Below are positions 1-37,257 of a stretch of DNA of 37,257 nt, in pieces. Numbering within the stretch: position 1 is the stretch's first letter; each line of letters opens with the position of its first letter. The translations under genes were made by a program, and so were the position numbers. Source of the stretch: a virus (taxonomy: Duplodnaviria > Heunggongvirae > Uroviricota > Caudoviricetes); IMG/VR virus record IMGVR_UViG_2917849834_000002; one strand, given 5' to 3'. The notes under the pieces are model-generated. The model did not search any database, had not been told where the DNA came from, and saw nothing but the letters and a program-made list of their open reading frames with translations.

Positions 1-993
1 TTAACTCAATAACCAGACCAACATCACGATGATGGCGGTCAGCAATATCCACAGGCTGGGGCGCATGGCCATTTCTTGCATCGTGTTAATGAATGGCGTA
101 AAGGGATTGAGTAACGGTTGAATATCTCGCGGTTCAATCCCATTCACCCGCCGTTGATAAAGCTGGTTGAGGATATCCTCGGCCTGTGCGGAAGTCAGGG
201 CTGATTGCTGAGAAAGGCCATATTTTTGCTCAACATAGCTCGATAATACTGTCAACTCGCTGGCATCCAGTGGCTGTTTTAGCGCCATCTGAAGCGACTC
301 CAGCGTCGGTGTATTTTGCTGACTTAACACCTGGCGTGCCTGCAACCAGGTAACCAGGTGGGTAAACATTTTTGCCGGGATCAACTCACCATTTTTTACC
401 CCAGAAAGTTCCAGCATAGATTGCCAAATCTGTTTGCTGGGTTCTCCTGTTGCCGCCGCGAGTTTAGTCACCAGTTGCTTAAGCGTATTGTGTTCTGCCG
501 GTAGCAAAGGGCGATCGGTCGCCTGGCGCTGTTGCGGCTGCGGGATAACCATCTTCCCTTCCTGTAACAGCGTCAGGACGGTTTTTAATTGCTCCGGTGA
601 GAGTTGATTCAGCGGCGTCTGACCAAAGTTATGACGAATGTAATCTGTGACCGCCTGACGATTATTCCCCAGCCGTAAATACTCGCTCAATTGCGCCAAA
701 AGCTGGCGGACAGAATGGCTTTCTTGCGCGGCCAGTAAACGTTGTGCAAGGTTTTGTTCTGCGGCGGGGAAATTGCGTGAAAGTAACGGTGAATCGCCGG
801 GCAGACCGATGTCGTGCTTTATACCAGCCCACAATTCCGCGCTCTGCTGTTGCGTCAGCGAAGTCACTTTGGTTATCAAACTTTCCAGCACTGTACGTTG
901 CAAGCTGGATAAAGGCTGATTGCCTGCGCCAGACGACAGTTTATCCCCCTGACCCGGTGGTTGCCCAGGAGGGGCGGAAATTGGTTGTATCAT
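1..993 (-). CDS. flk: C-terminally membrane-anchored Q/P-rich protein, probable flagellar regulator Flk; likely host gene outside the prophage
   Basis: 330-aa ORF with stop at 1..3; N-terminal MIQPISAPPGQPPGQG, Gln/Leu-rich, single hydrophobic C-terminal anchor (WILLTAIIVMLVWLL). Identity to Flk is from memory of the family, not a search. Confidence 0.45.
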   Translation of the reverse strand: MIQPISAPPGQPPGQGDKLSSGAGNQPLSSLQRTVLESLITKVTSLTQQQSAELWAGIKHDIGLPGDSPLLSRNFPAAEQNLAQRLLAAQESHSVRQLLAQLSEYLRLGNNRQAVTDYIRHNFGQTPLNQLSPEQLKTVLTLLQEGKMVIPQPQQRQATDRPLLPAEHNTLKQLVTKLAAATGEPSKQIWQSMLELSGVKNGELIPAKMFTHLVTWLQARQVLSQQNTPTLESLQMALKQPLDASELTVLSSYVEQKYGLSQQSALTSAQAEDILNQLYQRRVNGIEPRDIQPLLNPFTPFINTMQEMAMRPSLWILLTAIIVMLVWLLS

Positions 994-1161
994 TACGTAT
1001 CCTTATACCTGAAATCATCGCAAGTATGCCTGGCCGCGAGATTATGGCACACTTGTCCGGTTAACTCTCGTTCTCATACAGGTACCACAAACGTGAAAAT
1101 CCTTGTTGATGAAAAAAGTGATGATTTAATTTATTGATATAAAAGGATTTGTATCAGCGTA

Positions 1162-15899: not shown

Positions 15900-15924
15900 T
15901 TCCTTTTAAAGTCAAGAATAAGAG

Positions 15925-15957: not shown

Positions 15958-15963
15958 GTAAAA

Positions 15964-16409: not shown

Positions 16410-16414
16410 TGCTG

Positions 16415-16711: not shown

Positions 16712-16714
16712 GGT

Positions 16715-17170: not shown

Positions 17171-18315
17171 GCGTTTTCCTCCAGAGATTTATCCAGCTGA
17201 ATGCCCACTTTGATGGTTTTAGGGCAGGCGTAAGGGCGGACGACAATGCTGATGCTGACCGTCTTTTCGTTCTGCCAGGTGATAACCACGTCGCCTTTCC
17301 GGGGCGATTTCACTTCGCCCGGAAACGTGATGCCGTTAATTTGCATGGATTTCGCCATGGCACGCAGTGGGCGGGCAAACAGCGTTTCATGTGCGGCAAT
17401 GCTGCCCGGCGTGCTGTTCAGCGAGCGGTCGGCAATCTTGGGGATGGCCATCAGCCGCACGCGGCGCGCCACCTTATCAGCAATGCGGACATGCTCAATG
17501 ACGTTGTAGTCCCCGCCTTCCACCTCAAGTGTTACACCGTCAGCCCAGTAAAGGCCGTCATAGTCGGCATACCACATGGGCACGCTGTAGCGGGCGGTTG
17601 CCAGTGCCTGCAGAGTGTCGAGATCAATTGCCTGCCCTGTGCTGTCTTTCGGGCGTTCTGTGGTTTTCAGTGCGGACAGGGGCCCGGTTGCCACACGTGC
17701 TGGACTGTCAGCAATGGTGACGGCGCTGTTACACAGGCGACCGGCAAGAACGCCCGGTTCAAATCCAAAAATCTCCGGAACCAGCATGACCTGCGGGGCT
17801 GCAATGCCTTTCTGTAGTGCGGTCAGTTCGGCAACGTATTCCGCCCAGGTTTTACTGTTGTCGTTGGCGGCGATGGTCAGGATGAACCAGATGCGGCGCT
17901 GATATTTATTGATGATGGTCTGACGTAACGCCTGTATGGCGTTGATGTCATCCTGCGTGCTGACCGGCTCGGTGATCACCACGCCTTCAACTGAAACAGT
18001 TTCCTGAGCCGCCAGTATGGCGTTCTGCCATACCTGGCAGGCTGGCGTTGCTTCTTTGCCTTTGCCGGCTTCCGGCAGAACGGCAACATAGAAAAAGGCA
18101 TTCTGTCCGGCATTGGTCAGTGCAGACTGAAGGAAGTTTTTCAGCGGGCTGGCGTTCTTTCCCAGTAGCTCATCCAGATCGCTGTTGGCATTAACCGGCA
18201 GAACCTCACCTTTGTTGTTTTGTGCATTGCCCACAAACAGCAGCGTATTTTCCACGCCGTCCGGTGAACTGCTGAATGTGTTGTACTGTTCAATCGTGAC
18301 AGATGGCCATGTCAT
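17167..18315 (-). CDS. Tail sheath protein
   Basis: About 383 aa from ATG at 18315 (SD AGGAGA 6 nt upstream; the ORF extends to 18447); size and position before the tube gene. Confidence 0.6.
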   Translation of the reverse strand: MTWPSVTIEQYNTFSSSPDGVENTLLFVGNAQNNKGEVLPVNANSDLDELLGKNASPLKNFLQSALTNAGQNAFFYVAVLPEAGKGKEATPACQVWQNAILAAQETVSVEGVVITEPVSTQDDINAIQALRQTIINKYQRRIWFILTIAANDNSKTWAEYVAELTALQKGIAAPQVMLVPEIFGFEPGVLAGRLCNSAVTIADSPARVATGPLSALKTTERPKDSTGQAIDLDTLQALATARYSVPMWYADYDGLYWADGVTLEVEGGDYNVIEHVRIADKVARRVRLMAIPKIADRSLNSTPGSIAAHETLFARPLRAMAKSMQINGITFPGEVKSPRKGDVVITWQNEKTVSISIVVRPYACPKTIKVGIQLDKSLEENA

Positions 18316-18334
18316 GGTTTGTCTCCTGATTTTG

Positions 18335-19048
18335 TTATCTCGTGCCGCCGTAATGCAGGCTGCGCAGCTGCGCTTCCAGAATGCGGGCAAATTCAGCATC
18401 GCTGGCTCCCAGAAATGCGCGGGAGGGGATTTTGATTTCCCATACACGTTTTTTCTGCTCGCCTTTCAGAATGCTGATCACCAGTCCGGCCTGCGCCATA
18501 CTCATGTTTTCCATAATCCATTTCAGAGAAGGCTTTCTGCGTCCCCTGCGTCCGGTTTTTTTGCTGACTGCGCCGACGGGGGCCCGAAAGCCCAGAGAAA
18601 GAAGGCGTTCTGCCTGCCGTCGTGTGGCGGGACGGGTGCGCATGGCTTCGCTGTCCCGGCGTTTTGTGGCGCGGCCTTTGATGGTTGCGCCGTGCTGTTG
18701 CACCCACGCGACCGCCCCACCATGAGAGCCGGTGTTGTAATCCCCTTTTTTGAAGAAAAGGCGGACACTTTTCCCGCTGCCGTCAACCCTGATGGCCAGC
18801 AATTTCGGCAGTCCCAGCAGCATTTTGTTTTTATACCTGCCGCTGGCTTTATCCGGTCTTTTTCGTGGTGCCCAGGCTGCCCCCTCCGGTGTTCGCTGTG
18901 CTTTCACATTGCGTCGTGCAGCCGGTCTCAGGCCGTATTTCGCAATGCGAACCAGCAGCTTTCTGGCCTTTGCCGGCGGAAGTTCTGCCTCTCTGATGGC
19001 GCGACGAACCTGCCGGAGTTGTGACTCGTTAATCACGGGGCTCGTCAT
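18335..19048 (-). CDS. Virion morphogenesis / tail completion protein (gpS-like)
   Basis: 237 aa, basic; positioned between the R-like and sheath genes; ATGA-coupled to the R-like gene. Confidence 0.45.
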   Translation of the reverse strand: MTSPVINESQLRQVRRAIREAELPPAKARKLLVRIAKYGLRPAARRNVKAQRTPEGAAWAPRKRPDKASGRYKNKMLLGLPKLLAIRVDGSGKSVRLFFKKGDYNTGSHGGAVAWVQQHGATIKGRATKRRDSEAMRTRPATRRQAERLLSLGFRAPVGAVSKKTGRRGRRKPSLKWIMENMSMAQAGLVISILKGEQKKRVWEIKIPSRAFLGASDAEFARILEAQLRSLHYGGTR

Positions 19049-19518
19049 GGCATCACCTGGCAGTGAAGCTGATGCGCCTGAGCCACCCAGATTTCAGGCT
19101 TTTCCAGCTGGTAACGTTTCCCGCCTCTGGGGATGGGGCCGTTTTCGTCCTCAACCAGGGTGATGGGATCAACCAGCGGCAGACTGATTTCCAGCCATGC
19201 CACTTCATTTTCATCATCCACTTCGACGTCAACGGCTGGCGCATCCGGTGCCAGGCGCTGGCGCAGGTCGCCGCCGTTGTCTGCCAGCCAGGCTTCAACC
19301 AGAGAAAACACCAAATCCGGATTGAGCTGACGATAGGGCCATGCGTCCCATCGCAGAAAAGCCGTATATTTTCGGACCTGCGTACATAACTGCCCGTGCC
19401 CCAGCGACTTCGTAAACGGAACGAGCGTGATGTCATCCATGTCACTGGTGAACGGAATGCGTGCGCGTGCCGGCAGATTGTTTTCAATGAATGCCGTCAG
19501 GCTGGCGAGTTGCGTCAT
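19045..19518 (-). CDS. Tail completion protein (gpR-like)
   Basis: 157 aa; immediately after the head-completion gene, size close to P2 gpR. Confidence 0.45.
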   Translation of the reverse strand: MTQLASLTAFIENNLPARARIPFTSDMDDITLVPFTKSLGHGQLCTQVRKYTAFLRWDAWPYRQLNPDLVFSLVEAWLADNGGDLRQRLAPDAPAVDVEVDDENEVAWLEISLPLVDPITLVEDENGPIPRGGKRYQLEKPEIWVAQAHQLHCQVMP

Positions 19519-19527
19519 ACCATTTCC

Positions 19528-20022
19528 TTAATCAATCAGCGCGATGGATGCACGCGGTCGGCCCAGCAGCGCCCGCACCGCCATGGCCGCTTCAGCCAGC
19601 AATGTCCGGCGGCTTTCGCTGGCTTCTGATGATGGCTGCGCCTCGCGCCGCCCCACGCTGGCAGATTCCGGCAAAAGATCGGCCTTTGCGCGGGCATACA
19701 CAGCCTTGGTGTACAGTGCTGTAATGTGGTTCTGCATCCGTTCAGGTTGTGCATCCGTATTGCGCGGCTCTGGTTGCAACACGGTGTAACCCGGAATATC
19801 AGCGGCCCGGATGTGGCCCTGTTCCTGCCAGTATTCACGGCGTGCAGCCAGTTCAGTGTTAATCTCTGTTACCGCGCAAAGCAGCGCCGTCAGCACCGTT
19901 TCGTGTGACGTGACGGCGGGGATGCTGCGGCTCTTTTCAAAATCGCCGGCATCAATATCCGGCCAGAATCCATCGTTCTGAATAATGGCCTGCTGATAGT
20001 GAATGCTTTTCCCGTCAAACAT
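19528..20022 (-). CDS. L: Head completion protein (gpL-like)
   Basis: About 164 aa from ATG at 20022 (the ORF extends to 20217); downstream of the small terminase subunit, as in P2. Confidence 0.65.
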   Translation of the reverse strand: MFDGKSIHYQQAIIQNDGFWPDIDAGDFEKSRSIPAVTSHETVLTALLCAVTEINTELAARREYWQEQGHIRAADIPGYTVLQPEPRNTDAQPERMQNHITALYTKAVYARAKADLLPESASVGRREAQPSSEASESRRTLLAEAAMAVRALLGRPRASIALID

Positions 20023-20120
20023 GCTCACTCCGGGGAAAGGCGGGCTGACCGGTTTCCGCAGTGTGCTGATGGCTTTTGCCGGCACACCTCCACCGCGCCC
20101 GCCCGGTTGTTGGGAGTCGT

Positions 20121-20831
20121 TTACGTGCCCTGCAACGCGCGCAGTCTTGCGGCAATGCGCTGGCGCAGGGTTTTCACCTGAATTTTTGGATGCAGCCAGG
20201 CAGCTCGTTCCAGACACTGGTCGGCCTGTTGCAGTCTCTCCGGATCGTTAATTGCACTGGCCAGCGGTTTACCGTCATCGCCGCGCAGCAGCAGGACGCC
20301 TGCAAAGCGCCAGTAGCGGGCAGCAAGGCGTTCATTCACGCGCCATTTGTCACGGATTTTTTCAAACACCTGCTGAAAATATGGCGCGATACTGTTCCCG
20401 CGTTCAGCTTCGGTTTCTGCCCATTCAAGAATGAAATGGGCCACAAACGTTGGCAGCTCGCTTTTGAAGTTCTCCGGCGTCTTCTGTCCCTGCTCAATGG
20501 CAATGTCAGCCCACCGTAGCGCCATCTCAAACTGCCCGGTATCGAACAGCCAGATGATGCAGTACACCAGAATGGGATTCTGATAGACGCGTTCCCCCTC
20601 CAGATAAGCCTGTGCGTGTGGCAGCCAGCGGGGCAGCAGCGTGTTCCGTTTGAATTCCAGCTTGTCAGACAGCAGCTCCATGTTGTGCAGTTGTCTGATG
20701 TCGTTATCCAGTGCCAGCAGCTTAATGTGCTGACTCTCTGTGCTGATGGCGCTCCCGTCCGTTCTGGTCATGAGCGCCGCACGGCGCTCATCCATCTGTC
20801 GGGCACGTTGTCGCTGCATTGGCGTTGGCAT
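20121..20831 (-). CDS. M: Terminase small (endonuclease) subunit, gpM-like
   Basis: 236 aa in P2 order O-N-M-L. Confidence 0.75.
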   Translation of the reverse strand: MPTPMQRQRARQMDERRAALMTRTDGSAISTESQHIKLLALDNDIRQLHNMELLSDKLEFKRNTLLPRWLPHAQAYLEGERVYQNPILVYCIIWLFDTGQFEMALRWADIAIEQGQKTPENFKSELPTFVAHFILEWAETEAERGNSIAPYFQQVFEKIRDKWRVNERLAARYWRFAGVLLLRGDDGKPLASAINDPERLQQADQCLERAAWLHPKIQVKTLRQRIAARLRALQGT

Positions 20832-20848
20832 ACCGTGCGCTCCGTTTA

Positions 20849-21862
20849 TCAGGCGATGGTGACCGCAGACTCATCCACGGCAGCATATAAATCCGGATCG
20901 CCCAGGGCGTACCCCTCGTAACGCCAGTATGAGTTTTCGAACTGTTTGCGATCGCCCACATCTTCTGCCTTGCGGCGGCGGGAGCCTTTCAGCGTCAGGA
21001 TCTGCAGGTTTGGCAGCATGGTCACCACCATACGTTTGCCCGGCATAAACGGCGGAATGATGGCCTTGCGGCCTGCAATGTTCTTCGTCAGCAACTGTGC
21101 GGCCACTTTTTCGGTAGGCTTATCCTCTTTGTTGTAGAGGCGTAGTTCTTCAGCAGCCACAAGGTCTGCGCCGACCAGTACGGTAAGTCGTGGGTCGTTG
21201 TGATACTGTGCCGGGATGTAAGTGCGGATCAGGTCTGAGGCCATGGCATCAAGACCGACATAATCGCCGCCTTCGCCCAGGGTAACGGCGTCTGTCAGAA
21301 TACGGGAGGTATTGCCGGGCTGTTCTCCCCACTTTTTGGCGATTTCATGCCAGCCGATGTTGACGTCCTCGCCGTTCGGATGGCTTTCAGGATCGGAGTT
21401 TTCCGCTGCTGTTTTACCGTTAAAGCCAATGCGCAGCATATCCAGCGCAAAGTTGGTAACGGCTGCGGAGTTCATCAGGTTGAAAAATTCCTGCGGGCTG
21501 CCAGCATTCGCCCAGATGGCGAGTTGTTCCCAGGTGATCACGCAGCAGGAATCAGTTTCAACGAGTTTAAATTCGTTGCCTTTGATGCCTGAACCTTTGG
21601 CGAAACGACCGCTTTTCACGCGACCGGTGCGCAGCGTGGATTCACCCACGGTGACGACCTGTCCCTGCGGGTGCGGAACGTCCATGCAGGTGATGAAACT
21701 CAGAAACTCGGTGCTTTCCAGCAGGGCTTTACGCAGGGCAATGCTGCGCGGTTCGGTCAGAGAAAAAGCGCGATCACCTGAGGCAGCGCAGTCACTGAAT
21801 GTTTTTTGCAATTCGCTGAGGTACTGATTAACCAGCTTTTGTGCTTCTGGTGTCATGTTCAT
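20849..21862 (-). CDS. N: Major capsid protein, gpN-like
   Basis: 337 aa between scaffold and small terminase genes. Confidence 0.8.
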   Translation of the reverse strand: MNMTPEAQKLVNQYLSELQKTFSDCAASGDRAFSLTEPRSIALRKALLESTEFLSFITCMDVPHPQGQVVTVGESTLRTGRVKSGRFAKGSGIKGNEFKLVETDSCCVITWEQLAIWANAGSPQEFFNLMNSAAVTNFALDMLRIGFNGKTAAENSDPESHPNGEDVNIGWHEIAKKWGEQPGNTSRILTDAVTLGEGGDYVGLDAMASDLIRTYIPAQYHNDPRLTVLVGADLVAAEELRLYNKEDKPTEKVAAQLLTKNIAGRKAIIPPFMPGKRMVVTMLPNLQILTLKGSRRRKAEDVGDRKQFENSYWRYEGYALGDPDLYAAVDESAVTIA

Positions 21863-21876
21863 TGCGTTCTCTCCGG

Positions 21877-22758
21877 TTACACCAGGTTAAAAGTTTCGCC
21901 ACCGGCCGGATTGTTACCCGGCAGCTTCGTGGCATCCTTGCTGAGTTCAGCAAATGCGGTTTCCATGCTGGTGACTTTCTCCGCGATGGCGTTCACCGTG
22001 GAGAACAGCTTTTCACCCTGCTCGGTGGTCAGCGTGAAGGTTTTGTCGTCCTTGTTGTTCTGTTCTGCGTTGTCCTGCCCCTGATCGCCAGTGCTGCCTT
22101 CCGGCTTGTTATCACCGGTATTTTTCGGGGCATCCTTCGCGCTGAACTGCGCGACGTTTTCTTCCAGTTTGTCCAGGCGTTCGCCGGTTTTGTTGATGGC
22201 GTCCATTAACTGACCGAACTGTTTTTCGTTCATATCGTTTTCCTGTTTGAATGGCCAGAGCTGTGAGAACCATGCCTTTTTGGCTATCTCGTCATCTGAC
22301 TGTAATGTGAAACAAAGTTCCTCCACGTTTCCCGTGCGAATAGCTTCGCCCTGTGAAAATTGCAGGCGGGTGGTGTGGATGCTGGCAGGGGTGTCGGTTA
22401 CTGTGAGGGCGCGGAGATAAAACTTTCCCGTTCCCATGTAATTTTCACCAACATCAATAGAGGTAAACAGCTTTTGCCCCGCTTTATTCGCCTCAAGTAA
22501 AAAGCGATTTGGCGTAATGCGGGCCTTGAGCTGAATTTTGTCGCCGAATTTCTCTGTTTTGAGTGCATCCACATGACCGTAATTATCAACAAACTGATAA
22601 GTGTAGGGGGATGCATGAAATGGCCAGAGCATGGCAGTGCGCTCGTCAGCGTTGTAAACCTCCGCCGCATCTGTCAGCCATTTGGGATCAATCTCCCGCC
22701 CGTCAACGGTCGGGCCTGATGTGGCTATCACTATCCAGTCTGTTTTTTGTTTCGTCAT
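21877..22758 (-). CDS. O: Capsid scaffolding protein, gpO-like
   Basis: ATG at 22758 (the track ORF starts at an upstream TTG); acidic Lys/Glu/Asp-rich C-terminal half; divergent from P. Confidence 0.75.
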   Translation of the reverse strand: MTKQKTDWIVIATSGPTVDGREIDPKWLTDAAEVYNADERTAMLWPFHASPYTYQFVDNYGHVDALKTEKFGDKIQLKARITPNRFLLEANKAGQKLFTSIDVGENYMGTGKFYLRALTVTDTPASIHTTRLQFSQGEAIRTGNVEELCFTLQSDDEIAKKAWFSQLWPFKQENDMNEKQFGQLMDAINKTGERLDKLEENVAQFSAKDAPKNTGDNKPEGSTGDQGQDNAEQNNKDDKTFTLTTEQGEKLFSTVNAIAEKVTSMETAFAELSKDATKLPGNNPAGGETFNLV

Positions 22759-22840
22759 CTGAATCAACCCGCTGATAAAAATTAACTGGTGTTATTTAAG
22801 AGGGAAATAAAAAAAACGTCACCTGATTAATTTCCGGTAA

Positions 22841-22951: not shown

Positions 22952-24739
22952 ATGGCGTATTCTGATGAGGTGATTGCTGCTGCAAAATCGCTCTATCTGA
23001 AAAGACACACACCAAAAGAAATACAAAAAAAACTCGGACTGAACAGTCCGCGAATTGTTTATTACTGGGCGACAAAATTTGAGTGGTACACGCAGCTTAA
23101 TACTGAAGGCGTGGAGGATGTTATCGCCCGTCGTCTCGCTGTACTGGCGGAGCGTGATCATAAAACGCCGGAAGAACACGATGAACTCGATCGCCTGATT
23201 GGCCATCACGTCAAACTGATGTCGGTCAGGAACAAGCACACGGAACGAATGGCCGAGATTGAACGAATGGGAGCGGATATTCCCCAGTCTGGTCGTTATG
23301 GAAAAGAAGAACGCGGAGAAAAAGGTGCAGGTAAGAAAGAGCGCCCCCGCAAAGCTAATGACGTTTCCGGACTGACAGCGGAAAGTTTTGAGCCGTTTAC
23401 GAAAAAATTGTTTGCTTATCAGTTGCGCCTGCGTGAAAACAAATTCCGCCGTGTGCGCAACCTGCTTAAATCCCGCCAGATTGGGGCGACGTATTACTTC
23501 GCGTTTGAGGCATTTGAAGATGCAGTATTAACCGGCGACACACAGATATTTTTATCGGCATCAAAACGTCAGGCCGAAGTGTTCCGTACTTATATTGTAA
23601 AAATTGCACAAACAGAGTTTGGTATTCCCATTAAAGGCAATCCGGTTAAGTTAAGTAACCTGGCTGAACTGTATTTTCTGGCGACCAACAGTAACACAGC
23701 GCAGTCAAACAGCGGCCACCTGTATATTGATGAATACCTGTGGATCCCCGGTTTTCGCCGTCTCAATGAAGTGGCATCAGGGATGGCCACCCATAAACAC
23801 TGGCGCATTACCTATTTCTCCACGCCGTCATCCAAAACACACCAGGGTTACCCGTTCTGGTCTGGCGATGAATGGCGCAAAGGCGATCCGAAACGAAAAG
23901 GGGTTGAGTTTCCGTCCTTTGATGAGCTGCGCGATGGTGGGCGTGAATGTCCGGATGGTCAGTGGCGCTATGTGGTTACGCTGGAAGATGCTATTGCCGG
24001 CGGTTTTAACCTTGCTGACATCAACGAGCTGCGCGAGCGATACAACGAAACAGCGTTCAATATGCTGTTTATGTGCGTGTTTGTGGATGACAAAGAGAGC
24101 GTCTTTAAATTCGATGATCTTGTGCGTTGTGGTGTTGATGTCAGTACGTGGGAGGATTATCACCCGGAAGAGTCCATGCCATTTGGTAACCGTGAGGTGT
24201 GGGGCGGCTTTGACCCGGCGCGCTCCGGCGATAACGCCACATTTGTTGTGCTGGCACCGCCGCTGGTTGCGGCAGAACGATTCCGCGTGCTGGAAAAACA
24301 CCACTGGCGCAGCATGTCATTCCAGTTTATGGCAGAGCGTATCCGCAGCATTAAGGCGCGCTATAACATGACGTTTATCGGCATTGACGTCACCGGTCTT
24401 GGTTACGGTGTCTTTGAGCTGGTTCAGGGATTTGCCCGCCGTGAAACAGTGGCCATTCATTACAGCGTGGAATCCAAAAACCGCCTGGTGATGAAGATGC
24501 TGGATCTGATTTACGCCAACCGTATTGAGTGGGATGAGGAAGCCACGGATATTCCGGCATCGTTCCTGGCCATTCGTCAGGAATCCACCAACAGCGGCAA
24601 TAAAGTCACTTTCACCGCCGAACGTAGCGAAGAAACCGGGCACGCTGACATCTTCTTTGCCATAGCTCATGCCGCAAGTAATGAACCCCTGAACTATAAG
24701 CACAAGCGCAAATCAACATGGATCCTGTCAGATGAGTAA
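22952..24739 (+). CDS. P: Terminase large (ATPase) subunit, gpP-like
   Basis: 595 aa; Walker A-like KSRQIGATYYF; overlaps the portal gene start by 8 nt. Confidence 0.9.
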   Translation: MAYSDEVIAAAKSLYLKRHTPKEIQKKLGLNSPRIVYYWATKFEWYTQLNTEGVEDVIARRLAVLAERDHKTPEEHDELDRLIGHHVKLMSVRNKHTERMAEIERMGADIPQSGRYGKEERGEKGAGKKERPRKANDVSGLTAESFEPFTKKLFAYQLRLRENKFRRVRNLLKSRQIGATYYFAFEAFEDAVLTGDTQIFLSASKRQAEVFRTYIVKIAQTEFGIPIKGNPVKLSNLAELYFLATNSNTAQSNSGHLYIDEYLWIPGFRRLNEVASGMATHKHWRITYFSTPSSKTHQGYPFWSGDEWRKGDPKRKGVEFPSFDELRDGGRECPDGQWRYVVTLEDAIAGGFNLADINELRERYNETAFNMLFMCVFVDDKESVFKFDDLVRCGVDVSTWEDYHPEESMPFGNREVWGGFDPARSGDNATFVVLAPPLVAAERFRVLEKHHWRSMSFQFMAERIRSIKARYNMTFIGIDVTGLGYGVFELVQGFARRETVAIHYSVESKNRLVMKMLDLIYANRIEWDEEATDIPASFLAIRQESTNSGNKVTFTAERSEETGHADIFFAIAHAASNEPLNYKHKRKSTWILSDE

Positions 24740-25766
24740 AAAGAAAAAATACCCCGTGTTACACGATGGCGTAGCAAAAAAAACAGCCAGCAAAATGACG
24801 TTTATTGAATTTGGTGACCCGGAACCGGTCGCTGCATGGGGCTGTTATTACGGCTCGCTCTGGGATGGTTATAACGGCTGGTACACGCCGCCCATTGAGC
24901 GCATGGATCTCGCTATGTTGGCCAATATCGCACCGTATCACGGCGCGGTACTGCGTGCACGCGTCAATATGATCATGCAGGGTTTTCGTGGGGGTGGTGG
25001 TATGACACACGCCGCCATGGCGGCAGCGGTGACCAATCTGCTGATATTCGGGGATATGGGACTGCTTAAAGTGCGCAATGGCTTCGGGCGGGTGGTGCGC
25101 CTGCATACGTTGCCTTCTCTGTACCTGCGGCGTAACAACGAGGGTGGCACGGTGATTGTGCAGGCAGCACTGGAAGATCTCGTTTACCCGCCAGGCGAAG
25201 TGGTGTTCGTGGCTATTTATGACCCGCAACAGCAGGTTTACGGTGTTCCGGATTATATCCACGGGATGGAATCCGCCATGCTGAATGTGGATGCCACCCG
25301 CTTTCGCCGCAAGTATTACAAGAACGGCGCACATCTTGGTTATATCCTGTATTCCACTGACCCGGACATGGACCCCGAGCTCGAGGCGGAATTCCGTAAA
25401 AAGATAGAGGCGTCAAAAGGGGCGGGCAATTTTAAATCCATGTTTATCAATATACCTGGCGGAGACAAAGAAGGCGTTAAGGTGATCCCTATCGGGGATT
25501 CAGGTACAAAAGATGAGTTCCTGAATATAAAAACCATCAGTGCCCAGGATCAGCTCGTTGCACACCGTTTTCCACCCGGACTTGCCGGCATCATTCCCGC
25601 AAATACGGCCGGGCTTGGTGATCCGCTGAAATCCCGCGAGGCATATTACAGAGATGAGGTTATTCCGATGCGCCGCCTGATTATGGAGGGAATCAACAGT
25701 GACCCGGATATCAGGCGACTGGGGGAGGTGAAATTTATTCTTGATTTTGATGAACCCCGGGAGTGA
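24732..25766 (+). CDS. Q: Portal protein, gpQ-like
   Basis: 344 aa, the size of P2 gpQ; directly downstream of the large terminase. Confidence 0.85.
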   Translation: MSKKKKYPVLHDGVAKKTASKMTFIEFGDPEPVAAWGCYYGSLWDGYNGWYTPPIERMDLAMLANIAPYHGAVLRARVNMIMQGFRGGGGMTHAAMAAAVTNLLIFGDMGLLKVRNGFGRVVRLHTLPSLYLRRNNEGGTVIVQAALEDLVYPPGEVVFVAIYDPQQQVYGVPDYIHGMESAMLNVDATRFRRKYYKNGAHLGYILYSTDPDMDPELEAEFRKKIEASKGAGNFKSMFINIPGGDKEGVKVIPIGDSGTKDEFLNIKTISAQDQLVAHRFPPGLAGIIPANTAGLGDPLKSREAYYRDEVIPMRRLIMEGINSDPDIRRLGEVKFILDFDEPRE

Positions 25767-25831
25767 TGTGCGACATGCGAAAAGAGCGGGTAAAATCAGC
25801 AGCAGGAAAACGCTGCCCCGGGAGGTGGAAA

Positions 25832-26089
25832 ATGCGCAGACAAAAAGCGCGGTGTTTTTGCTGTGGCGAACGCGCAGTGATTGAGAAGACCTTCTGGAAA
25901 GATGATCGCTTTGCAGATGTTTATTACCGTTGCACCCATCTCGAGTGCGGGCACACCTGGGTGATGAACCTGACCTACTCGCACACACTGGTGCCCAGCG
26001 GGCTGGAGAATGGCGTGTTAAAGCTGTTGATTGAACGAATGCGCCCGGAAGAAAAACAGATGGCGCTGGAGCTGTTGCAGGCCGGGTAA
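25832..26089 (+). CDS. Ogr/Delta-family zinc-finger protein (putative late-gene activator)
   Basis: 85 aa from ATG at 25832 (SD GGAGG 6 nt upstream); CxxC-22 aa-CxxxxC (CFCC ... CTHLEC) matches Ogr spacing. Confidence 0.55.
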   Translation: MRRQKARCFCCGERAVIEKTFWKDDRFADVYYRCTHLECGHTWVMNLTYSHTLVPSGLENGVLKLLIERMRPEEKQMALELLQAG

Positions 26090-26322
26090 TGGGGATAGCA
26101 TGAGGTTTGTGCCAACCTCTCAGCTGGCGTGGTTGGAGTCCCAGTCTGACGACGAAGTGACCAACTAGGCGGTATCAACTTTTTTGGGGGAGCCGCCTCT
26201 GAATCCCCAAAACCTTACAATACAGTTTGCAGGCGAAAGATAATGCTTAATAAATTTAAGCTCAACGATAAAGTTATTTTCCCTGCTACGGTGACTGACG
26301 CGCTTCGCTTGTCTGCTGCTTC

Positions 26323-26351
26323 GCCGGGGCATAAAGGATTTATGCCCCGGC
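26323..26351. promoter_or_regulatory. Perfect 13-bp-arm palindrome between convergent ogr-like and parR genes
   Basis: GCCGGGGCATAAA gga TTTATGCCCCGGC; no flanking T-tract; lies in the region where cos is expected by synteny. Confidence 0.4.
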
Positions 26352-26424
26352 TCACCAGCCCCGTTTAGTTCGTACCCTCCTGCAGTGGACCATTAGCGGT
26401 TATCCGTCGGCCACTCTGATGGGG

Positions 26425-26730
26425 TTATTCGGGAAAAAGTGCGCGGATATTATCTTTCATTACCTGTGTGTTACTGTCACTCTTCGCTGTCGGTCTTTCT
26501 GACTGTGCCGGCAATGATGGTATCTGGATTTCGTCTTCTGACCATTCAGCTAACGAATACGCCAACGCGGGGGCGCGTTTTATAAGAGCCAGTCCGGCCA
26601 GAAAAGCCGCGCGTTGCGCGCGGCTGCGTTCGGAGGCTGGCAGGCTATTGAGGTAATTGCACGCCTCCTGTTCACTCTTGACGGCAGCTGGCTTCAGATA
26701 GAAACTTATCCGTCTGGTTGGTGTCGTCAT
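26425..26730 (-). CDS. parR: ParR-like centromere-binding protein
   Basis: 101 aa from ATG at 26730 (SD AAGGAG); LNSLPASERSRAQRAAFLAGLAL resembles the plasmid R1 ParR N-terminal region as I recall it; directly follows parM. Confidence 0.7.
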   Translation of the reverse strand: MTTPTRRISFYLKPAAVKSEQEACNYLNSLPASERSRAQRAAFLAGLALIKRAPALAYSLAEWSEDEIQIPSLPAQSERPTAKSDSNTQVMKDNIRALFPE

Positions 26731-26734
26731 TGGT

Positions 26735-27694
26735 TTACTCCTTGTCCATTGCGTACAGCCCATTAACCAGAGCAAACTGTGGCACCCCGTCCGCGATGAA
26801 AGTCGCATTAACTCCGCAGGCTTCGCGGATAGCGGGTGCCACAATCTCCGCCCCGCCACCGACAACCATCACCCGCCCGTAACCCGAAAAAACCGCCAGC
26901 GCGCGGATCACGCGTTGTTTCAGTGTTTCTTCCTTTTCACGAATAACCGCCATCAGGCTGGCGTAATGCGCGTCATTGTGGATGTGCTGGCGCAGCCAGG
27001 CTTCATCATGGCGATGTTCGATAATGGTATTGGCGATGTGGTGACTGGTGCGCATACCGTTAGTGGCCATCACCGACAGTACGGCATCGGCCATCAGAGA
27101 AACGCCTACGTGTGGATCGCAAAACACCTGGCTGATACCTGCCAGTTGCCCCTGAACCTTTGCCACATCCAGCGTGGTTCCGCCCAAATCCACAATCAGC
27201 AGGGATTCAAACGGACTCATGTCAGCCAGTGCCTTAAAGCCAGCCGGAATGGATTCAGGCATAACCCGTACGTTACGGATAGTGAATGCTTCGCCGTTCT
27301 GGTACTCCACCGGGCGCATGACATTCGCTTTTTTGCGGTTGATGTTGGCCATGTCCGGCTGTGCGTTTGTATCGAAATACTCGCTCAGTGGCAGGGTGAC
27401 AACCACATCCACTTCCTGTGGTGTGATGCCTGATTTGACCAGCGCGTGATGAATGGCAATTACATTCACATCGCTGTACTGGTATTGCGTGTCGGTCGTC
27501 TGGACAAAGCGATCGCTGACCGGATCAAAACCATAGCGCACGCCATCAAGCATGTAGTTCGCGGGCTGCGTGCCACCGAACGGCGCAGACCATTCCGACT
27601 TGAAGCTGTTCGGGCTGATGGCGTTGCGGCGTTCGCCGTTCTCAGTCCATGCCAGCTTGATGTTGGTGGAGCCGTCGTCGATACAAATTTTCAT
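26735..27694 (-). CDS. parM: ParM/StbA-family actin-like segregation ATPase
   Basis: 319 aa; MKICIDDGSTNIKL, LIVDLGGTTLD and VMVVGGGAE align with R1 ParM motifs from memory; SD AAGGAAAAG upstream. Confidence 0.88.
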   Translation of the reverse strand: MKICIDDGSTNIKLAWTENGERRNAISPNSFKSEWSAPFGGTQPANYMLDGVRYGFDPVSDRFVQTTDTQYQYSDVNVIAIHHALVKSGITPQEVDVVVTLPLSEYFDTNAQPDMANINRKKANVMRPVEYQNGEAFTIRNVRVMPESIPAGFKALADMSPFESLLIVDLGGTTLDVAKVQGQLAGISQVFCDPHVGVSLMADAVLSVMATNGMRTSHHIANTIIEHRHDEAWLRQHIHNDAHYASLMAVIREKEETLKQRVIRALAVFSGYGRVMVVGGGAEIVAPAIREACGVNATFIADGVPQFALVNGLYAMDKE

Positions 27695-27729
27695 GTCGCT
27701 TTTCCTTATGTTGATTAATTAATCGGTTA

Positions 27730-27837
27730 CAGGATTTTTAAATCCCGTTTTTGCCTGTTTTATGCGTGCTTCATATATCGCGGCGCGTTTTTTGCTCATT
27801 TACGGGATTTGTGAATCCCGTTTCTGTCTGTTTTTTG
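27730..27837. repeat. Two ~35-bp direct repeats, each with an internal palindrome; candidate parC-like centromere/operator
   Basis: ACAGGATTTTTAAATCCCGTTTTTGCCTGTTTT (27730..) and ACGGGATTTGTGAATCCCGTTTCTGTCTGTTTT (27802..), upstream of parM and overlapping a plausible promoter and the last codons of gpA. Confidence 0.5.
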
Positions 27838-30596
27838 TTCCCACGGGTCAGGCCACCCCGCAGCAGGTCTGCTTTGCGGTGGACGCGTTCAGTAGTTTCA
27901 CTGATTCTCTGTGCGTGCTCTGCGTCACGGATGGCGCGCAGCATGTCAGAAAGCACGGTAACGGGTGTTTTCATGATGTTCTGGTCCTGCTGAAGTGTGG
28001 ATGCCAGGCGTGCGGCGGCTTCGGGGTCTGATGCCCCCAGCTGTGCCAGATAGCTGGCGACCGGGTTATGGCGGATCTCCGTGCTGCTTACGCCGTGATT
28101 ACGGCTCAGGCGCTGCCAGAGCTGCGTGATTCGGCTGTCCGGGCGGGTATCCGGTTTGCGTACAACTTCAAATCCCTGCGGTGCAATGATGCTGCCGTCA
28201 ACGTACAGACTGCCGCCCCGTAACAGGTGCTGCATCTGCTGTTCACCAATATGCAGGCCGAGAGATTCAGCAGACTCCCGCCATTCTTTGGCGAGTAACT
28301 CGTGGTTATCAGGCAAAGGCTGTGGCTGTTTGCGGCTCTGTGTCCAGCTCTGCATTTCATCGCTGCTGTTTTTTGCCTGTTTGTCACGCAGCGAACGCAT
28401 CAGCGCCCGGCGTTCGTGCCGTTTCAGTGAGTGCATCCATTCATCCACATCAACGCCGTCAGGAAGCTGCGGCCACGGTGTTGACCGTTCTTCCGGCTGT
28501 TCTGTCCCGTTGTTGTCCGTTTCCTGTACAAGGGGACAGTTATTGCCACGAGTCCAAGGGGCGGCAGGGCCGCCCTGAAGGTCAAAACCATTTTCGTGGG
28601 CGCTGTCTTCCGCTTCCGGTTTACGTCTTACCAGCGTCCAGTTATCCGGATGTGTGCACACGCGGGAAGACTCCCCGATGAGCGGCGACCAGATCCCGTA
28701 AATCTGTACGCTCTGTTCGCCGTAATCGTTCAGCTCATCTGCGAGGTCGTAGGCGGTGCGAATCAGGTAGTCCTTGCGTGGAACAAGTACGCCACCCTGT
28801 TTTTCAATGTAGGTGGCAAAACACCCGGCATCGGCGGCAGCGAGTACCGCATCCATTGCATCATCCTTCAGCCGTTGCGGGCCTTCCGGGTTGCGTGCCA
28901 TCTGGCTGGCAAGGCGGCGGAGTTCACGCCATACCTGACGGGAGGGGATGCCAAAGAACTGGAACTGGCGGACCCGGTGAAGGCGCGCCCAGCCGATGGC
29001 GCGCTCCACGCTCTCGGCCATTGATTTACCTGTTTCGTGGTCAACGCGTGGCTTGCCCGTTTTCGGGTCGATACCATCCACGGCGCGGCTGTCCAGGTTC
29101 TTTCCGATGTAGGTGGCGATGTAGCTGGTTGGTGTGCCTTTTGAGCCGTCGACGTACTCCGCCTTAAAGCGCGGGGTGATATCGCTGCCCAACTCGTGGC
29201 GGTCTTCCTGAATGGCAATATCGCGGGCGTGGGACACAATAGTGTCGATTTCTTCCGGATGAGCAAAGACCATCATATGCCAGTGCACGGTGCCGTCATG
29301 GTGAGGCTCCACCGTGCGGATGCCATACCAGCGCAGGCCGTCGCGGCTCAGTTTTTTGCGGACCGCCGCAAAAAACGTGTTAACCAGGTAATCGCTGGAG
29401 TCGCGCATTGTGGCCCCGTTCCATTTGGGATTCGGATGACCGTTCTCTGTTGTGGCGTGGTATTTTGACGGGCAGGTGACAGTCAGAAACACCGCTTTGT
29501 CGCCACGGGCTTCGGCCAGAAGTTCCAGCCCCTTCATGGTGGCCATCATTTCTGCCTTACGGTGAGTCGGGTTACTTACTCCCGCGTAATACACTGTCTC
29601 GAGATCAATCGTGAAGCCGTCTTCGTTTTCCAGCATGAAACTTTTCAGGAAATCGCGTGTTTTCTCGCGCTGCGCGCGAAACTCGCTTAACGCGTCCTGG
29701 CTCAGATAGGGCGATGTTTTTCTGGAAACCAGACAGGCGGCGCGGAGTTGTTCTTCCCGCCACTCGCAACGTAGAAGCCATAGTTTGCGCTTCCACCAGT
29801 CCGCGCAGGTCAGGCGGAGGATTGCGCCCGGTAACAATTCCGTATCCGGAACGCTCTTGTTCAGGGCTTCGTAATGTGGCGGCATGATGTGCAGGCATAA
29901 TGCGATACGGGCCAGCATCCGGTAAGCCTTCAACATTACATCCATGGTCAGCTCGCCATCTCTGGCACCAAAGCCATCGCAGAGTGTTTCGAAGGTGCTG
30001 CTGAGCATCGCCGCTGTCATGACGGCCAGCGTCTGTATCTGGTGCTTGTTGAGCTGCGGCAGGTAAAGCAAATCGTCCAGGCGTTCGCGCCCGGCAAGGG
30101 AGCGATAACCCGGTGTCAGCCAGCGTCCGTCAGTGCGATCCAGACGTTCGAATATTTTGCGCAGGGTTCCGCGTGCATAGCCCTCTGCTGGTCGGCTCTT
30201 TTTGCCTTTCTGGCGATCAGATTCCTGCTTCTTACGCAAAAAAGAGAGGCGGCGGCTCAGTGGTTCACGCAGATAAACGGGAAGTGCCTTCAGTTCGGCA
30301 AAGGCGCTGGCCACCGGGTCTTGCTTTATTTCCTGGCGCTTATTGATGATGTTTTTTATCAGTTTTTCGCGTTGCCCGGCTTCCTCAAGGGATGCCATGA
30401 GTTTTTTGCCTGTATCGGATTGTGCGAAAAAGGCTTCTTCCTTCGCTTCCTGTTCTTCCTGTGCCCTTTTGTCCGCCTCAAGGTAGTAACGGATGGCGCG
30501 TTGCAGGTCGGTTTCAGTTTCCTGCCTGCGCTCCGTAAATCTGGCCGGATCAATGGCTGGCCGTGGTTCATTCCAGCTCCATGCAAACTCACTCAT
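27771..30596 (-). CDS. A: Rolling-circle replication initiator, gpA-like (HUH endonuclease)
   Basis: About 941 aa from ATG at 30596; HUH motif VHWHMMVF and active-site tyrosine pair YIATYIGKN; C-terminal region longer than P2 gpA. Confidence 0.85.
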   Translation of the reverse strand: MSEFAWSWNEPRPAIDPARFTERRQETETDLQRAIRYYLEADKRAQEEQEAKEEAFFAQSDTGKKLMASLEEAGQREKLIKNIINKRQEIKQDPVASAFAELKALPVYLREPLSRRLSFLRKKQESDRQKGKKSRPAEGYARGTLRKIFERLDRTDGRWLTPGYRSLAGRERLDDLLYLPQLNKHQIQTLAVMTAAMLSSTFETLCDGFGARDGELTMDVMLKAYRMLARIALCLHIMPPHYEALNKSVPDTELLPGAILRLTCADWWKRKLWLLRCEWREEQLRAACLVSRKTSPYLSQDALSEFRAQREKTRDFLKSFMLENEDGFTIDLETVYYAGVSNPTHRKAEMMATMKGLELLAEARGDKAVFLTVTCPSKYHATTENGHPNPKWNGATMRDSSDYLVNTFFAAVRKKLSRDGLRWYGIRTVEPHHDGTVHWHMMVFAHPEEIDTIVSHARDIAIQEDRHELGSDITPRFKAEYVDGSKGTPTSYIATYIGKNLDSRAVDGIDPKTGKPRVDHETGKSMAESVERAIGWARLHRVRQFQFFGIPSRQVWRELRRLASQMARNPEGPQRLKDDAMDAVLAAADAGCFATYIEKQGGVLVPRKDYLIRTAYDLADELNDYGEQSVQIYGIWSPLIGESSRVCTHPDNWTLVRRKPEAEDSAHENGFDLQGGPAAPWTRGNNCPLVQETDNNGTEQPEERSTPWPQLPDGVDVDEWMHSLKRHERRALMRSLRDKQAKNSSDEMQSWTQSRKQPQPLPDNHELLAKEWRESAESLGLHIGEQQMQHLLRGGSLYVDGSIIAPQGFEVVRKPDTRPDSRITQLWQRLSRNHGVSSTEIRHNPVASYLAQLGASDPEAAARLASTLQQDQNIMKTPVTVLSDMLRAIRDAEHAQRISETTERVHRKADLLRGGLTRGNKKQTETGFTNPVNEQKTRRDI

Positions 30597-30982
30597 GGCT
30601 GGTATCCCGTCACGCGCTGCCACTCCTGCGAGAAGATGGCGGAAAGGCGGTTAAATTCAGCGGTGTATTCACTCAGCGAGGCACACCCGCCAGCAGTGCG
30701 ATGCGCCAGCATTGCCACAAATACGGAGGCCGGGGAGTCGTAATACGCCAGCAGTGATTCGCCGTGTGGTGTCAGGCAGTGCAACGCCAGCCCGTGTGGT
30801 GTGAAATCCACGCGGTAGCAGTCGTCTACTGTGAAATAAAGGGTGTCCGCATTCTCCGGTTTTGTGGTGCGTGCTCTGTTGTCACGACCACGGATGTAGA
30901 GATCAAATAATCCCTGAAGAACGGGAGCCAGACGGGTGTCCTGTGTGCGCACCCATCTTGTGAAGTCATGAGCGTCAATCAT
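30593..30982 (-). CDS. Hypothetical early protein
   Basis: 129 aa; stop overlaps the gpA ATG (ATGA). Confidence 0.45.
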   Translation of the reverse strand: MIDAHDFTRWVRTQDTRLAPVLQGLFDLYIRGRDNRARTTKPENADTLYFTVDDCYRVDFTPHGLALHCLTPHGESLLAYYDSPASVFVAMLAHRTAGGCASLSEYTAEFNRLSAIFSQEWQRVTGYQP

Positions 30983-31054
30983 GCTGCAATTCTCTTTACT
31001 ACAGATGTGCGAAGGCCTCCCGCCGCAAGGTGCAGGAAAGGCCCGGAACAGGAA

Positions 31055-31285
31055 TTAATGGAGTTTGTTTTGCTGCTGGATGAGCTGTTGAAGCTCGTGC
31101 AGATCATCCGCCAGATAACTGAAAACAGAGGCGGAATAAATGTTTGATAGTGCGTGGCTGCGCTCATGCAGCATATTGATGTGCATGATTTGCGCGACGC
31201 GTGATGCGCGGGAAAGTCTGCGGTTGATTTCAGTCTGGATGTGACGACGCGCAGCGTATGCGCGCTGTTGTTTGCGGTTTGCCAT
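31055..31285 (-). CDS. Hypothetical small basic protein
   Basis: 76 aa, Arg/Gln-rich; SD-like AGAGG upstream of the ATG at 31285. Confidence 0.4.
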   Translation of the reverse strand: MANRKQQRAYAARRHIQTEINRRLSRASRVAQIMHINMLHERSHALSNIYSASVFSYLADDLHELQQLIQQQNKLH

Positions 31286-31459
31286 GATGTGGCCTCTACG
31301 TGTGTAAGTTTTGAAAACTCACCATCCAGAGCTGCGAAACTGTGGGTGGCGAGACGTACGAGGTTCGCAGTACCGGCAAACGCAGAACCCGGCCCGACCG
31401 AAGTCGGCCCCGTACGCCCCACCATAATTCGTGTGCGAAAAAGACGTGGCGATACAGTA

Positions 31460-31490
31460 CGCACAAAAAAACCGCTGGCGCGGTTGTGCG
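31460..31490 (-). terminator. Candidate intrinsic terminator inside the early region
   Basis: On the minus strand ACCGC-GCCA-GCGGT followed by UUUUUUU, nested in a longer imperfect dyad; about 120 nt downstream of the 183-aa gene stop. Confidence 0.4.
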
Positions 31491-31605
31491 CTACGTTTGT
31501 CAGCGGGCTGCGAAACCCGGCACCCGTTTTATGAGGTGCAGCGGAAATGTAACCTGACTGATTGCGGCATGGCAAGCGGTTTTTTTGTGTGTGCATGGTG
31601 GTTAC

Positions 31606-36252: not shown

Positions 36253-37257
36253 ATGTCGATTAAGAAGCTCGAAGATGGTCGTTATTTGCTGGACATCAGG
36301 CCGAACGGACGCAAGGGAAAGCGCGTGCGTAAGGTATTTGACAAAAAATCGGTAGCGGTGGCCACTGAACGCTACATCATGGCGAACGCTGAAAAGCGGG
36401 AATATATACAGGGCTACCGTGATCGTCGAACGCTAAATGATTTGCTTGAGTTGTGGTGGATGTATCACGGCCAGCACAGGCGTAAGGCGGAAGAAGACCG
36501 AAAACAACTGCGCAACATAATCAATGAGCTTGGCGCTGATATGCAGGCTGTGGATCTTGATAAGCTGAAAATTATCGCGTGGCGTTCTCAAAAGATAGCT
36601 GATGGATTGAAACCGTCATCTGCTAACAGATACATGAATCGGTTATCCGGAATGTTTACAGTACTGAAGAAAATAGGCCTCTGGGATGCAGAGCATCCGG
36701 TAAGGGGGATTTCTATTCTTTATGTATCCCCACGAGAAATGGCTTTCCTGTCCCGGAAGGAAGTGGCGTTATTGCTCGATACACTGGAGGGCGATTACTG
36801 GCGTGTTGCGCTTTTGTGTTTAAGCACGGGAGCGCGCTGGAGTGAAGCCTGTAAGCTCCGTGGTGAACAGATAGTTCATAACCGTGTAACGTTTCTCGAA
36901 ACCAAAAATGGCCGAAAGAGAACAGTGCCAATTTCGCAGGCGGTTTGTGAGGCGATCAAAACCAGAGAAACAGGCGGCTTGTTTGAGGTGAAGTACCGGG
37001 AATTCTGCTTGGCGCTGAAAAGAGTTAAGCCCGATTTGCCAAAAGGCCAGGCTGCACATGTGCTGCGGCATACGTTCGCCAGCCATTTTGTGATGAACGG
37101 AGGAAACATTATTGCGCTTCAGAAGATTCTTGGCCACGCAACCATTCAGCAAACAATGGCATATGCACATTTTGCACCGGATTACCTGCAGGATGCGGTG
37201 GCCCTTAATCCGCTGAAAGGTGGCGTGAGTGTCCACGCAGTGTCCACGGGGGATTAA
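36253..37257 (+). CDS. int: Tyrosine integrase, P2 Int-like
   Basis: 334 aa from ATG at 36253; N-terminal MSIKKLEDGRYLLDIRPNGRKGKRVRKVFDKK and C-terminal HVLRHTFASHF ... MAYAHFAP closely parallel P2 Int as I recall it. Confidence 0.9.
   Translation: MSIKKLEDGRYLLDIRPNGRKGKRVRKVFDKKSVAVATERYIMANAEKREYIQGYRDRRTLNDLLELWWMYHGQHRRKAEEDRKQLRNIINELGADMQAVDLDKLKIIAWRSQKIADGLKPSSANRYMNRLSGMFTVLKKIGLWDAEHPVRGISILYVSPREMAFLSRKEVALLLDTLEGDYWRVALLCLSTGARWSEACKLRGEQIVHNRVTFLETKNGRKRTVPISQAVCEAIKTRETGGLFEVKYREFCLALKRVKPDLPKGQAAHVLRHTFASHFVMNGGNIIALQKILGHATIQQTMAYAHFAPDYLQDAVALNPLKGGVSVHAVSTGD
37230..37247. repeat. Right copy of boundary repeat TGTCCACGCAGTGTCCAC inside the int 3' end
   Basis: 17/18 identical to 1162..1179; two tandem GTGTCCAC units. 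Confidence 0.5.

Follow-up and report, generated by a model that had tools for sequence, protein, structure and literature searches.

The parMRC locus of the low-copy plasmid R1, in which the repeats are followed by parM and then parR, is among the systems closest to the one described here: a ParM/ParR/parC-type (type II) segregation module carried by a P2-family prophage. The module occupies positions 26,425 to 27,837 of a 37,257-nucleotide (nt) stretch of viral DNA (Caudoviricetes; IMG/VR record IMGVR_UViG_2917849834_000002), the whole of which is called the window below. Both loci share the gene order, the presence of repeats immediately upstream of parM and a ParR of the family PF10784. 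They differ in their setting, since R1 is a low-copy plasmid whereas the carrier here is an integrating phage, one repeat lies inside the phage replication gene gpA and no consensus promoter was seen in the region scanned (see below). The repeats differ as well, those of the window consisting of two 20-bp palindromes 73 bp apart and a partial unit.

Cytomotive partition is established for plasmid prophages, as in the phage-plasmids of the P1/D6 group and the TubZRC system of Clostridium botulinum phage c-st, and the ParM/StbA homologue of phage D6 is 48% identical to the ParM of the window. However, these phages have dedicated plasmid replicons and no chromosomal integration cycle. Burkholderia phage KS14, which is P2-like and was experimentally shown to be maintained as a plasmid (PMC3091744), likewise combines a P2-family virion module with a partition function, but its partition protein is a ParA (type I), its initiator is RepB, its recombinase is of the serine type, a gpA-type module is lacking and the phage is not integrated. 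The AlpA/AlpC pair of the CGP3 prophage of Corynebacterium glutamicum offers another parallel, because there too an integrated prophage encodes an actin-like ATPase together with an adaptor that binds DNA, at repeats preceding the operon, and the excised circle requires both proteins to replicate efficiently (PMC4446434). The genomic setting is similar in the window, where the prophage is integrated and the module stands beside a replication gene; the proteins of the window do not belong to the AlpA and AlpC families.

The cassette itself is already known and annotated. Phage P88, Citrobacter phage phiSM and other Xuanwuvirus records carry the same cassette, with 96-98% identity in the DNA across the parM-gpA junction and 98-100% identity in ParM, and the genes are annotated there as ParM or partition protein in GenBank and RefSeq. 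A putative partition system was reported in about a quarter of Escherichia coli P2-like phages, for which an episomal phase was proposed (Rousset et al. 2022), and P88 emerged as a candidate phage-plasmid from a screen whose authors suggested 'episomal and integrative states' (Pfeifer et al. 2021; PMC7969092), so that the idea of an episomal phase is not new either. The gene is listed only as a 'fitness' factor in the phiSM paper and is not mentioned in the P88 paper, and no functional study was found in the literature. The prophage of the window differs from P88-like phages in having another head and tail module, a ParR allele that is unique among the relatives compared and an empty cargo slot. 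What is added here is that parMR is an ancient neighbour of gpA, that one candidate ParR site lies within gpA, that the variable slot begins beyond parR and is empty in this prophage, and that ParM and ParR contrast sharply in conservation.

An intact and selectively maintained module

The two genes of the module are the following.

26735..27694, minus strand: parM, actin-like segregation ATPase of 319 amino acids (aa), identified by Pfam, the PDB, identity to R1 ParM and pN/pS
26425..26730, minus strand: parR, adaptor and DNA-binding protein of 101 aa, identified by Pfam, PHROG, its start codon and its Shine-Dalgarno sequence

ParM matches two Pfam families over its full length, StbA_N (PF06406; E 1.8e-82, 275 bits) and the ParM C-terminal domain (PF21523; E 6.3e-69, 231 bits). 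In a search of the PDB, the structure of R1 ParM (1mwk) was matched by residues 2-316 of the product (E 8e-93), and identity to R1 ParM over the full length is 47%. Alignment to R1 ParM shows that the phosphate-binding and adenosine motifs of the nucleotide-binding site (DDGSTNIK, DLGGTTLD and GGGAE) are intact, as they should be in a ParM/StbA-family ATPase of a type II module. ParR, encoded downstream, was recognised by Plasmid_stab_B (PF10784, the ParR/StbB family) with 87.9 bits for a cut-off of 25 (E 3.9e-25) and by PHROG 2515 'partition protein' (E 1.8e-44). It matches the structure of pB171 ParR (2jd3) weakly (E 0.004) and, with the Pfam family, this match points to the N-terminal ribbon-helix-helix region that a type II ParR is expected to have. 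A sequence-only reading of the window had named both proteins, and these profile searches bear it out. The true start of parR is the ATG at 26730, 5 nt past the parM stop codon and preceded by a Shine-Dalgarno sequence (AAGGAG) within the 3' end of parM; the open reading frame (ORF) originally listed, 26425..26865, is longer.

How strongly these genes are maintained was assessed in 80 IMG/VR loci whose ParM is 99-100% identical to that of the window, three GTDB genomes, one E. coli chromosome and one PLSDB record. Across these 85 loci, the conservation of ParM (98-100% protein identity) is far above that of its partner ParR (54-84%), gpA being intermediate (84-95%, bar two partial matches). 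ParM is under strong purifying selection, the ratio of non-synonymous to synonymous polymorphism (pN/pS) being 0.06 in 69 unique parM alleles (pN 0.0046, pS 0.075). In ParR, the N-terminal strand MTTPTRRISFYLKP (RRISFYLKP) is near-invariant across alleles (pN/pS 0.13), two main allele classes can be told apart in the helical core (0.31), the linker formed by residues 66-92 is hypervariable and nearly neutral (0.78), and the C-terminal tail xNIxAxFPE is again conserved and constrained (0.16). Constraint on the N-terminal strand and the C-terminal tail is the pattern that would be expected of a working adaptor; in R1, the C-terminal peptide of ParR is the part that inserts into ParM. Megablast matches to many relatives end within parR, which places a recombination boundary of the neighbouring hotspot inside this gene. 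Altogether, the identity of the parts is near certain, and the module is a genuine, intact and selectively maintained type II segregation module.

Repeats upstream of parM

Three sequence elements precede parM.

27727..27764, no strand: proximal parC-like repeat, in the gpA-parM intergenic region, with its palindrome at 27729-27748
27800..27837, no strand: distal parC-like repeat, within the last ~20 codons of gpA, with its palindrome at 27802-27821
27786..27802, no strand: third, partial A-rich unit without a palindrome, sharing the A-rich part of the repeat alone

The two full units correspond to the direct repeats of about 35 bp with internal palindromes that the earlier reading had described, and they turned out to be 38 nt long and 73 bp apart, with 84% identity between them and a 20-bp palindrome, ACGGGATT-N4-AATCCCGT, in each. 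When up to two mismatches are allowed, the palindrome occurs at these two places only in the 37-kb window, where 0.17 occurrences are expected by chance. Because the gpA stop codon (TGA) is at 27771-27773, the distal repeat falls inside the end of gpA, where its palindrome encodes TGFTNPV; the intergenic region between gpA and parM is 76 bp. The arms of the palindrome (CGGGA...TCCCG) do not vary among 60 unique upstream sequences, unlike the bases at its centre, as would be expected of a site bound by a dimer. More distant prophages have comparable arrangements. In a Plesiomonas prophage there is a diverged pair of 26-nt repeats (GCGGGACAAC...CCCG), 72 bp apart, the first copy of which is at the 3' end of gpA, and Serratia and Enterobacter prophages have inverted repeat pairs of their own (14-20 nt) upstream of parM. 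An architecture kept despite sequence divergence lends comparative support, short of proof, to the notion that these are ParR sites.

The further claim that the repeats lie over the parM promoter is not borne out, since a consensus scan of 25700-28100 revealed no sigma-70 promoter and the distal repeat is in the gpA coding sequence. A weak TTTAAA-17-ATTAAT spotted by eye, overlapping the proximal palindrome, was not relied on as a promoter. Scanning the same region also revealed no terminator-like hairpin between gpA and parM on the transcribed strand, and parM is no less likely to be transcribed by read-through from gpA than from a promoter of its own.

A fixed place beside gpA and a variable slot beyond parR

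The module is flanked as follows.

27771..30623, minus strand: gpA, rolling-circle replication initiator (Phage_GPA), an ORF of 950 aa (941 aa in the source record)
~28536..28587, minus strand: putative origin (ori, nick region) within gpA, at gpA nt ~2037-2088, by homology to P2 only
26090..26424, no strand: variable-cargo slot, essentially empty (336-bp gap, no ORF of 60 aa or more)
25763..26089, plus strand: Ogr/Delta-like zinc-finger gene (Pfam Ogr_Delta 7.4e-11; PHROG 603)
24732..25766: portal gene, flanking the module on the side opposite gpA

The product of gpA, which lies directly upstream of parM and is co-directional with it, matches Pfam Phage_GPA (E 5.7e-128) and PHROG 91 'nicking at origin', and is 31% identical to the A protein of P2. 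Local alignment to the annotated ori nick site of P2 (29892) places a putative ori at the homologous position of gpA, ~0.75 kb from the parC-like repeats. This neighbourhood is constant. A gpA of this type precedes parM in all 83 loci with upstream sequence, at a distance of 79-123 nt in 79 of them, and the module was found with two unrelated head modules, characterized by either the window-type portal or the P88/P2-type portal (30% identical), which argues that it travels with the replication gene and not with the structural genes. Among 5426 complete E. coli genomes, 1279 have parM (counted as present at a coverage of at least 80%) and 1320 have this type of gpA, figures that are prevalences and not a co-occurrence table.

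The association extends beyond the P88 cluster, below which the nearest ParM homologues were found in P2-like prophages of Plesiomonas (62% identity), Hafnia (62%), Serratia (58%) and Enterobacter (54%). All four have the order gpA, 0-2 small genes, parM, parR, variable genes and portal, with an Ogr-like gene before the portal in two of them. ParMs from a phage context group together in a neighbour-joining tree, which, being without bootstrap, is suggestive only. The idea that parMR is tied to the unusually long gpA (~950 aa) was ruled out by these distant relatives, in which gpA is 785-907 aa and parMR is nevertheless present; the link is therefore one of lineage and position, not of gpA length. 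Hence, parMR is a conserved and ancient gpA neighbour, a fixed part of the replication region of a P2-family sub-lineage (P88/Xuanwuvirus-like phages and relatives in Enterobacterales and Plesiomonas) and not exchangeable cargo.

This bears on the region between gpA and the portal gene, which is a documented anti-phage hotspot (Rousset et al. 2022). That the module sits there was correctly recognised in the sequence-only reading, but the accompanying proposal that it fills a variable cargo slot has to be abandoned. Cargo of the P2 gpA-gpQ hotspot is defined both by this place and by variable presence among similar phages, and parMR has the place without the variability, being gpA-adjacent in every locus with upstream sequence, with the variable genes located between parR and the portal. 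The real hotspot is this latter interval. From the parR stop codon to the portal or Ogr-like gene, it spans 336-4183 bp and contains at least 54 ORF clusters in 67 loci, including Ead/Ea22-like proteins, a ClpX-type zinc finger, an AAA ATPase with an S8 peptidase, a helix-turn-helix protein with an M78 peptidase, DUF4760, and pairs of AAA_15 and OLD-like TOPRIM proteins. The gap in the window is the shortest of all those compared. In P2, orf91 directly follows gene A, and tin and old come further on, on the opposite strand and with their own promoter. No PADLOC match was obtained for ParM, ParR, gpA or the Ogr-like protein.

Two features on the portal side deserve mention. In relatives, the Ogr/Delta-like gene accompanies the window-type portal. 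It overlaps the stop codon of the portal gene, at a place that in P2 is occupied by a terminator and cos alone. Within the otherwise empty slot, there is a conserved inverted repeat with 21-nt arms (hairpin 26315-26359, in 26295-26367), and this stretch of ~70 nt also matches P2-like phages without parMR. As a candidate only, this region might belong to cos or act as a terminator. The 19-nt cos sequence of P2 is absent from the window even when three mismatches are allowed, and alignment of the P2 cos junction to 26086-26430 gave nothing meaningful, so that cos was not located.

An integrated prophage

The boundaries of the element involve three features.

1..993: host flk (Flk_N), the left host flank and the only host flank in the window, not identified in the sequence-only reading
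1096..1115, no strand: attL core AAAATCCTTGTTGATGAAAA at the 5' end of pdxB, the left prophage boundary
36253..37257, plus strand: tyrosine integrase, 334 aa in the source record (Pfam Int_N and Phage_integrase)

Comparison of attL, attR and attB, for which the 269-kb source contig PDIA01000054.1 (GCA_004745155.1), located through the exact ParR and integrase sequences, and the empty site of related strains were used, gives a core in pdxB and identifies the element as a chromosomally integrated prophage of ~36 kb, in line with the initial description of an integrated P2-family prophage with an integrase. The attR copy of the 20-bp core is ~183-202 nt past the right end of the window. In related strains with an empty site flk directly abuts pdxB, the N-terminus of which is replaced by the phage (VKILVDEN becomes LSETEKGLKILVDEN), and the exact integrase sequence adjoins pdxB in contigs of 230-420 kb.

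Type II modules are typified by carriage on autonomous low-copy replicons. This one is integrated in pdxB, and 1441 of the 1443 places where parM was found in the complete E. coli genomes are chromosomal, because of which a stable plasmid lifestyle is disfavoured. A phage-plasmid would moreover be expected to have an extrachromosomal prophage state and a plasmid-type Rep with copy control. The copy studied here is integrated and one clean circular record was found elsewhere; no plasmid-type Rep was seen in the ORFs scanned, which do not include every small ORF, and the sole replication initiator found is gpA, of the HUH rolling-circle type of the P2 early operon. The circular record (NZ_CP148288.1 in PLSDB) is a closed 'plasmid' of 34,461 bp from a cat isolate and amounts to a complete P88-like phage genome in which integrase and Cox are encoded. 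Over 14.4 kb it matches, with 100% identity, a prophage integrated in a human isolate (NZ_CP148378.1) of the same project; the strain carrying the circle is outside the complete-genome set. Other putative episomes were set aside: a Shigella boydii 'plasmid' was rejected as a linear, IS1-disrupted fragment, and several PLSDB 'plasmids' of 0.4-1.4 Mb that carry the cassette look like mislabelled pieces of chromosome.

What might the module do?

Since the prophage is integrated and copies of parM are nearly all chromosomal, selection must act via a transient extrachromosomal phase. On balance, we lean towards the view that the module acts on the free, circular phage genome replicated by gpA after infection or excision; this role, the attachment of ParR to the repeats and the time at which the genes are expressed are what we infer. 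According to this scenario, the module would be active only during the free-circle stage of the phage genome, parM and parR being transcribed with, or just after, the co-directional gpA that precedes them. ParR ribbon-helix-helix dimers would occupy the two palindromes, possibly with autoregulation through the proximal one, and filaments of ATP-bound ParM would capture the ParR-DNA complexes through the conserved C-terminal tail of ParR. P2 replication yields monomeric circles, and the filaments could push or position such circles as gpA produces them by rolling-circle replication. The outcome might be better replication or packaging, or a copy for both daughter cells before integration. AlpA/AlpC of CGP3 would, by analogy, be a precedent for this role. 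Besides the integrated state, we base this view on the family assignments, the constraint on ParM and on both ends of ParR, the conserved palindromes, the linkage to gpA, the failure of the scan to reveal a terminator between gpA and parM or a strong parM promoter, and the nearby putative ori.

Several points weigh against this view. The proximal palindrome of the window has a C>T change in one arm, which most relatives do not have. The array, made up of two palindromes (four half-sites) and a partial unit, falls well short of characterised parC sites in length, that of R1 consisting of ten 11-bp iterons flanking the promoter and pB171 having dozens of short repeats. With so few sites, it might serve as an operator rather than as a complete centromere. 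Read-through from gpA is deduced solely from the missing terminator-like hairpin. The parallel with CGP3 is loosened by the fact that AlpC belongs to a distant actin-like family, that the adaptor gene comes first and that the host is Gram-positive. Finally, the usual clients of a ParM spindle are low-copy plasmids maintained from generation to generation, and such a use is more in keeping with an episomal lifestyle than with a lytic burst.

It is this last consideration that a facultative phage-plasmid would satisfy, in which the genome would be either integrated or an autonomous circle whose stable inheritance is ensured by ParMRC and Hok. The presence of a canonical plasmid-type ParMRC speaks for it, as does the Hok/Gef toxin gene of the same prophage (2408-2548). 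Plasmid R1 pairs parMRC with hok/sok, and a phage with parMRC and a Hok-type killer thus carries both kinds of R1 stability function. The closed circle of 34,461 bp, a whole P88-like genome with its integrase, lends it some weight, KS14 shows that a P2-like phage can be a proven plasmid prophage, and an episomal state was suggested twice before (Pfeifer et al. 2021; Rousset et al. 2022). We nevertheless consider this explanation rather unlikely. The near-exclusive chromosomal location of parM in complete E. coli genomes and the clean att core of the window copy are difficult to reconcile with it, the only initiator found is gpA, which belongs to the early lytic operon, and the ORFs scanned revealed neither a plasmid-type Rep nor copy control, whereas KS14 has RepB and ParA. 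The early operon of P2 is repressed in lysogens. As for the episomes themselves, the single circular record could be an excised, replicating form captured by the assembly, and the Shigella 'plasmid' is the linear, IS1-ridden fragment mentioned above. A more explicit version, in which P88-like phages have a dual lifestyle and alternate between an integrated prophage and a low-copy rolling-circle plasmid maintained by gpA, ParMRC and post-segregational killing by Hok, seems distinctly unlikely; were it correct, the episomal state would have been missed since finished assemblies show the integrated copy.

Lysogenic conversion is very improbable as an explanation. Here, ParR, parC and ParM, expressed from the prophage, would keep out related phages or plasmids that enter the cell, or render them unstable, through partition incompatibility or mis-positioning of DNA. 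The module does border a documented anti-phage hotspot, it adjoins defence-like genes in relatives (AAA_15 with OLD-like TOPRIM, AAA with S8 peptidase, next to parR), and the diversity of ParR alleles next to a nearly invariant ParM would suit a diversification of specificity. However, this diversity is mostly in the linker, and the invariance of both the DNA-reading N-terminal strand and the palindrome arms indicates that binding specificity is not diversifying. In addition, the cassette is constant and not variable, ParM and ParR have no PADLOC match, and no promoter of the lysogenic-conversion type was detected in the consensus scan of 25700-28100. The remaining possibility, an inert relic of past plasmid-phage recombination carried as a functionless passenger, might appeal because the element is nearly always integrated, where partition is unneeded, but it is effectively excluded by the selection pattern (the low pN/pS of parM and the identity of ParM relative to gpA), and both ORFs are intact in an arrangement kept in other genera down to 54% ParM identity.

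Other features of the prophage

Elsewhere in the early region, two RNAs on the minus strand were recognised by Rfam, a C4 antisense RNA (31342-31429, 80 bits) and the Hfq-binding small RNA isrK (31465-31539, 70 bits), both inside or beside an Ash-family ORF (30979-31596). This looks like an antisense-controlled antirepressor module in the style of P1 immI within a P2-like phage, and it could be related to the reported inducibility of P88. Beside attL, on the minus strand, there are genes for an N6/N4 DNA methyltransferase (1224-2015) and a Com-type zinc-ribbon protein (1960-2166), and the Hok/Gef-type toxin ORF already discussed (2408-2548, 46 aa). A search of 50,697 phage records yielded no close relative of the tail and baseplate module (3379-22767), which was found in only 41 of the 5426 complete E. 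coli genomes, at ~93% identity. The prophage is therefore a mosaic of a P88-type early and replication module and a different myovirus structural module, the portal of which is 30% identical to that of the P88 type. A 226-kb contig labelled 'Vagococcus sp.', a member of the Firmicutes (NZ_JBQPOM010000071.1), has a P88-like prophage with gpA ~90% and ParM 98% identical, and this assembly is probably contaminated or mislabelled.

Implications

With parM in 1279 of 5426 complete E. coli genomes, O157:H7 and O104:H4 strains included, the module is very common. An immediate consequence is for surveys of the P2 gpA-portal defence hotspot, in which parMR should be counted as a conserved flank and not as a cargo 'system'. 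If the module does organise replicating phage circles, or sustain a hidden plasmid phase, this would extend the AlpA/AlpC precedent to a major family of Gram-negative phages, and it would inform views on the establishment of lysogeny by temperate phages.

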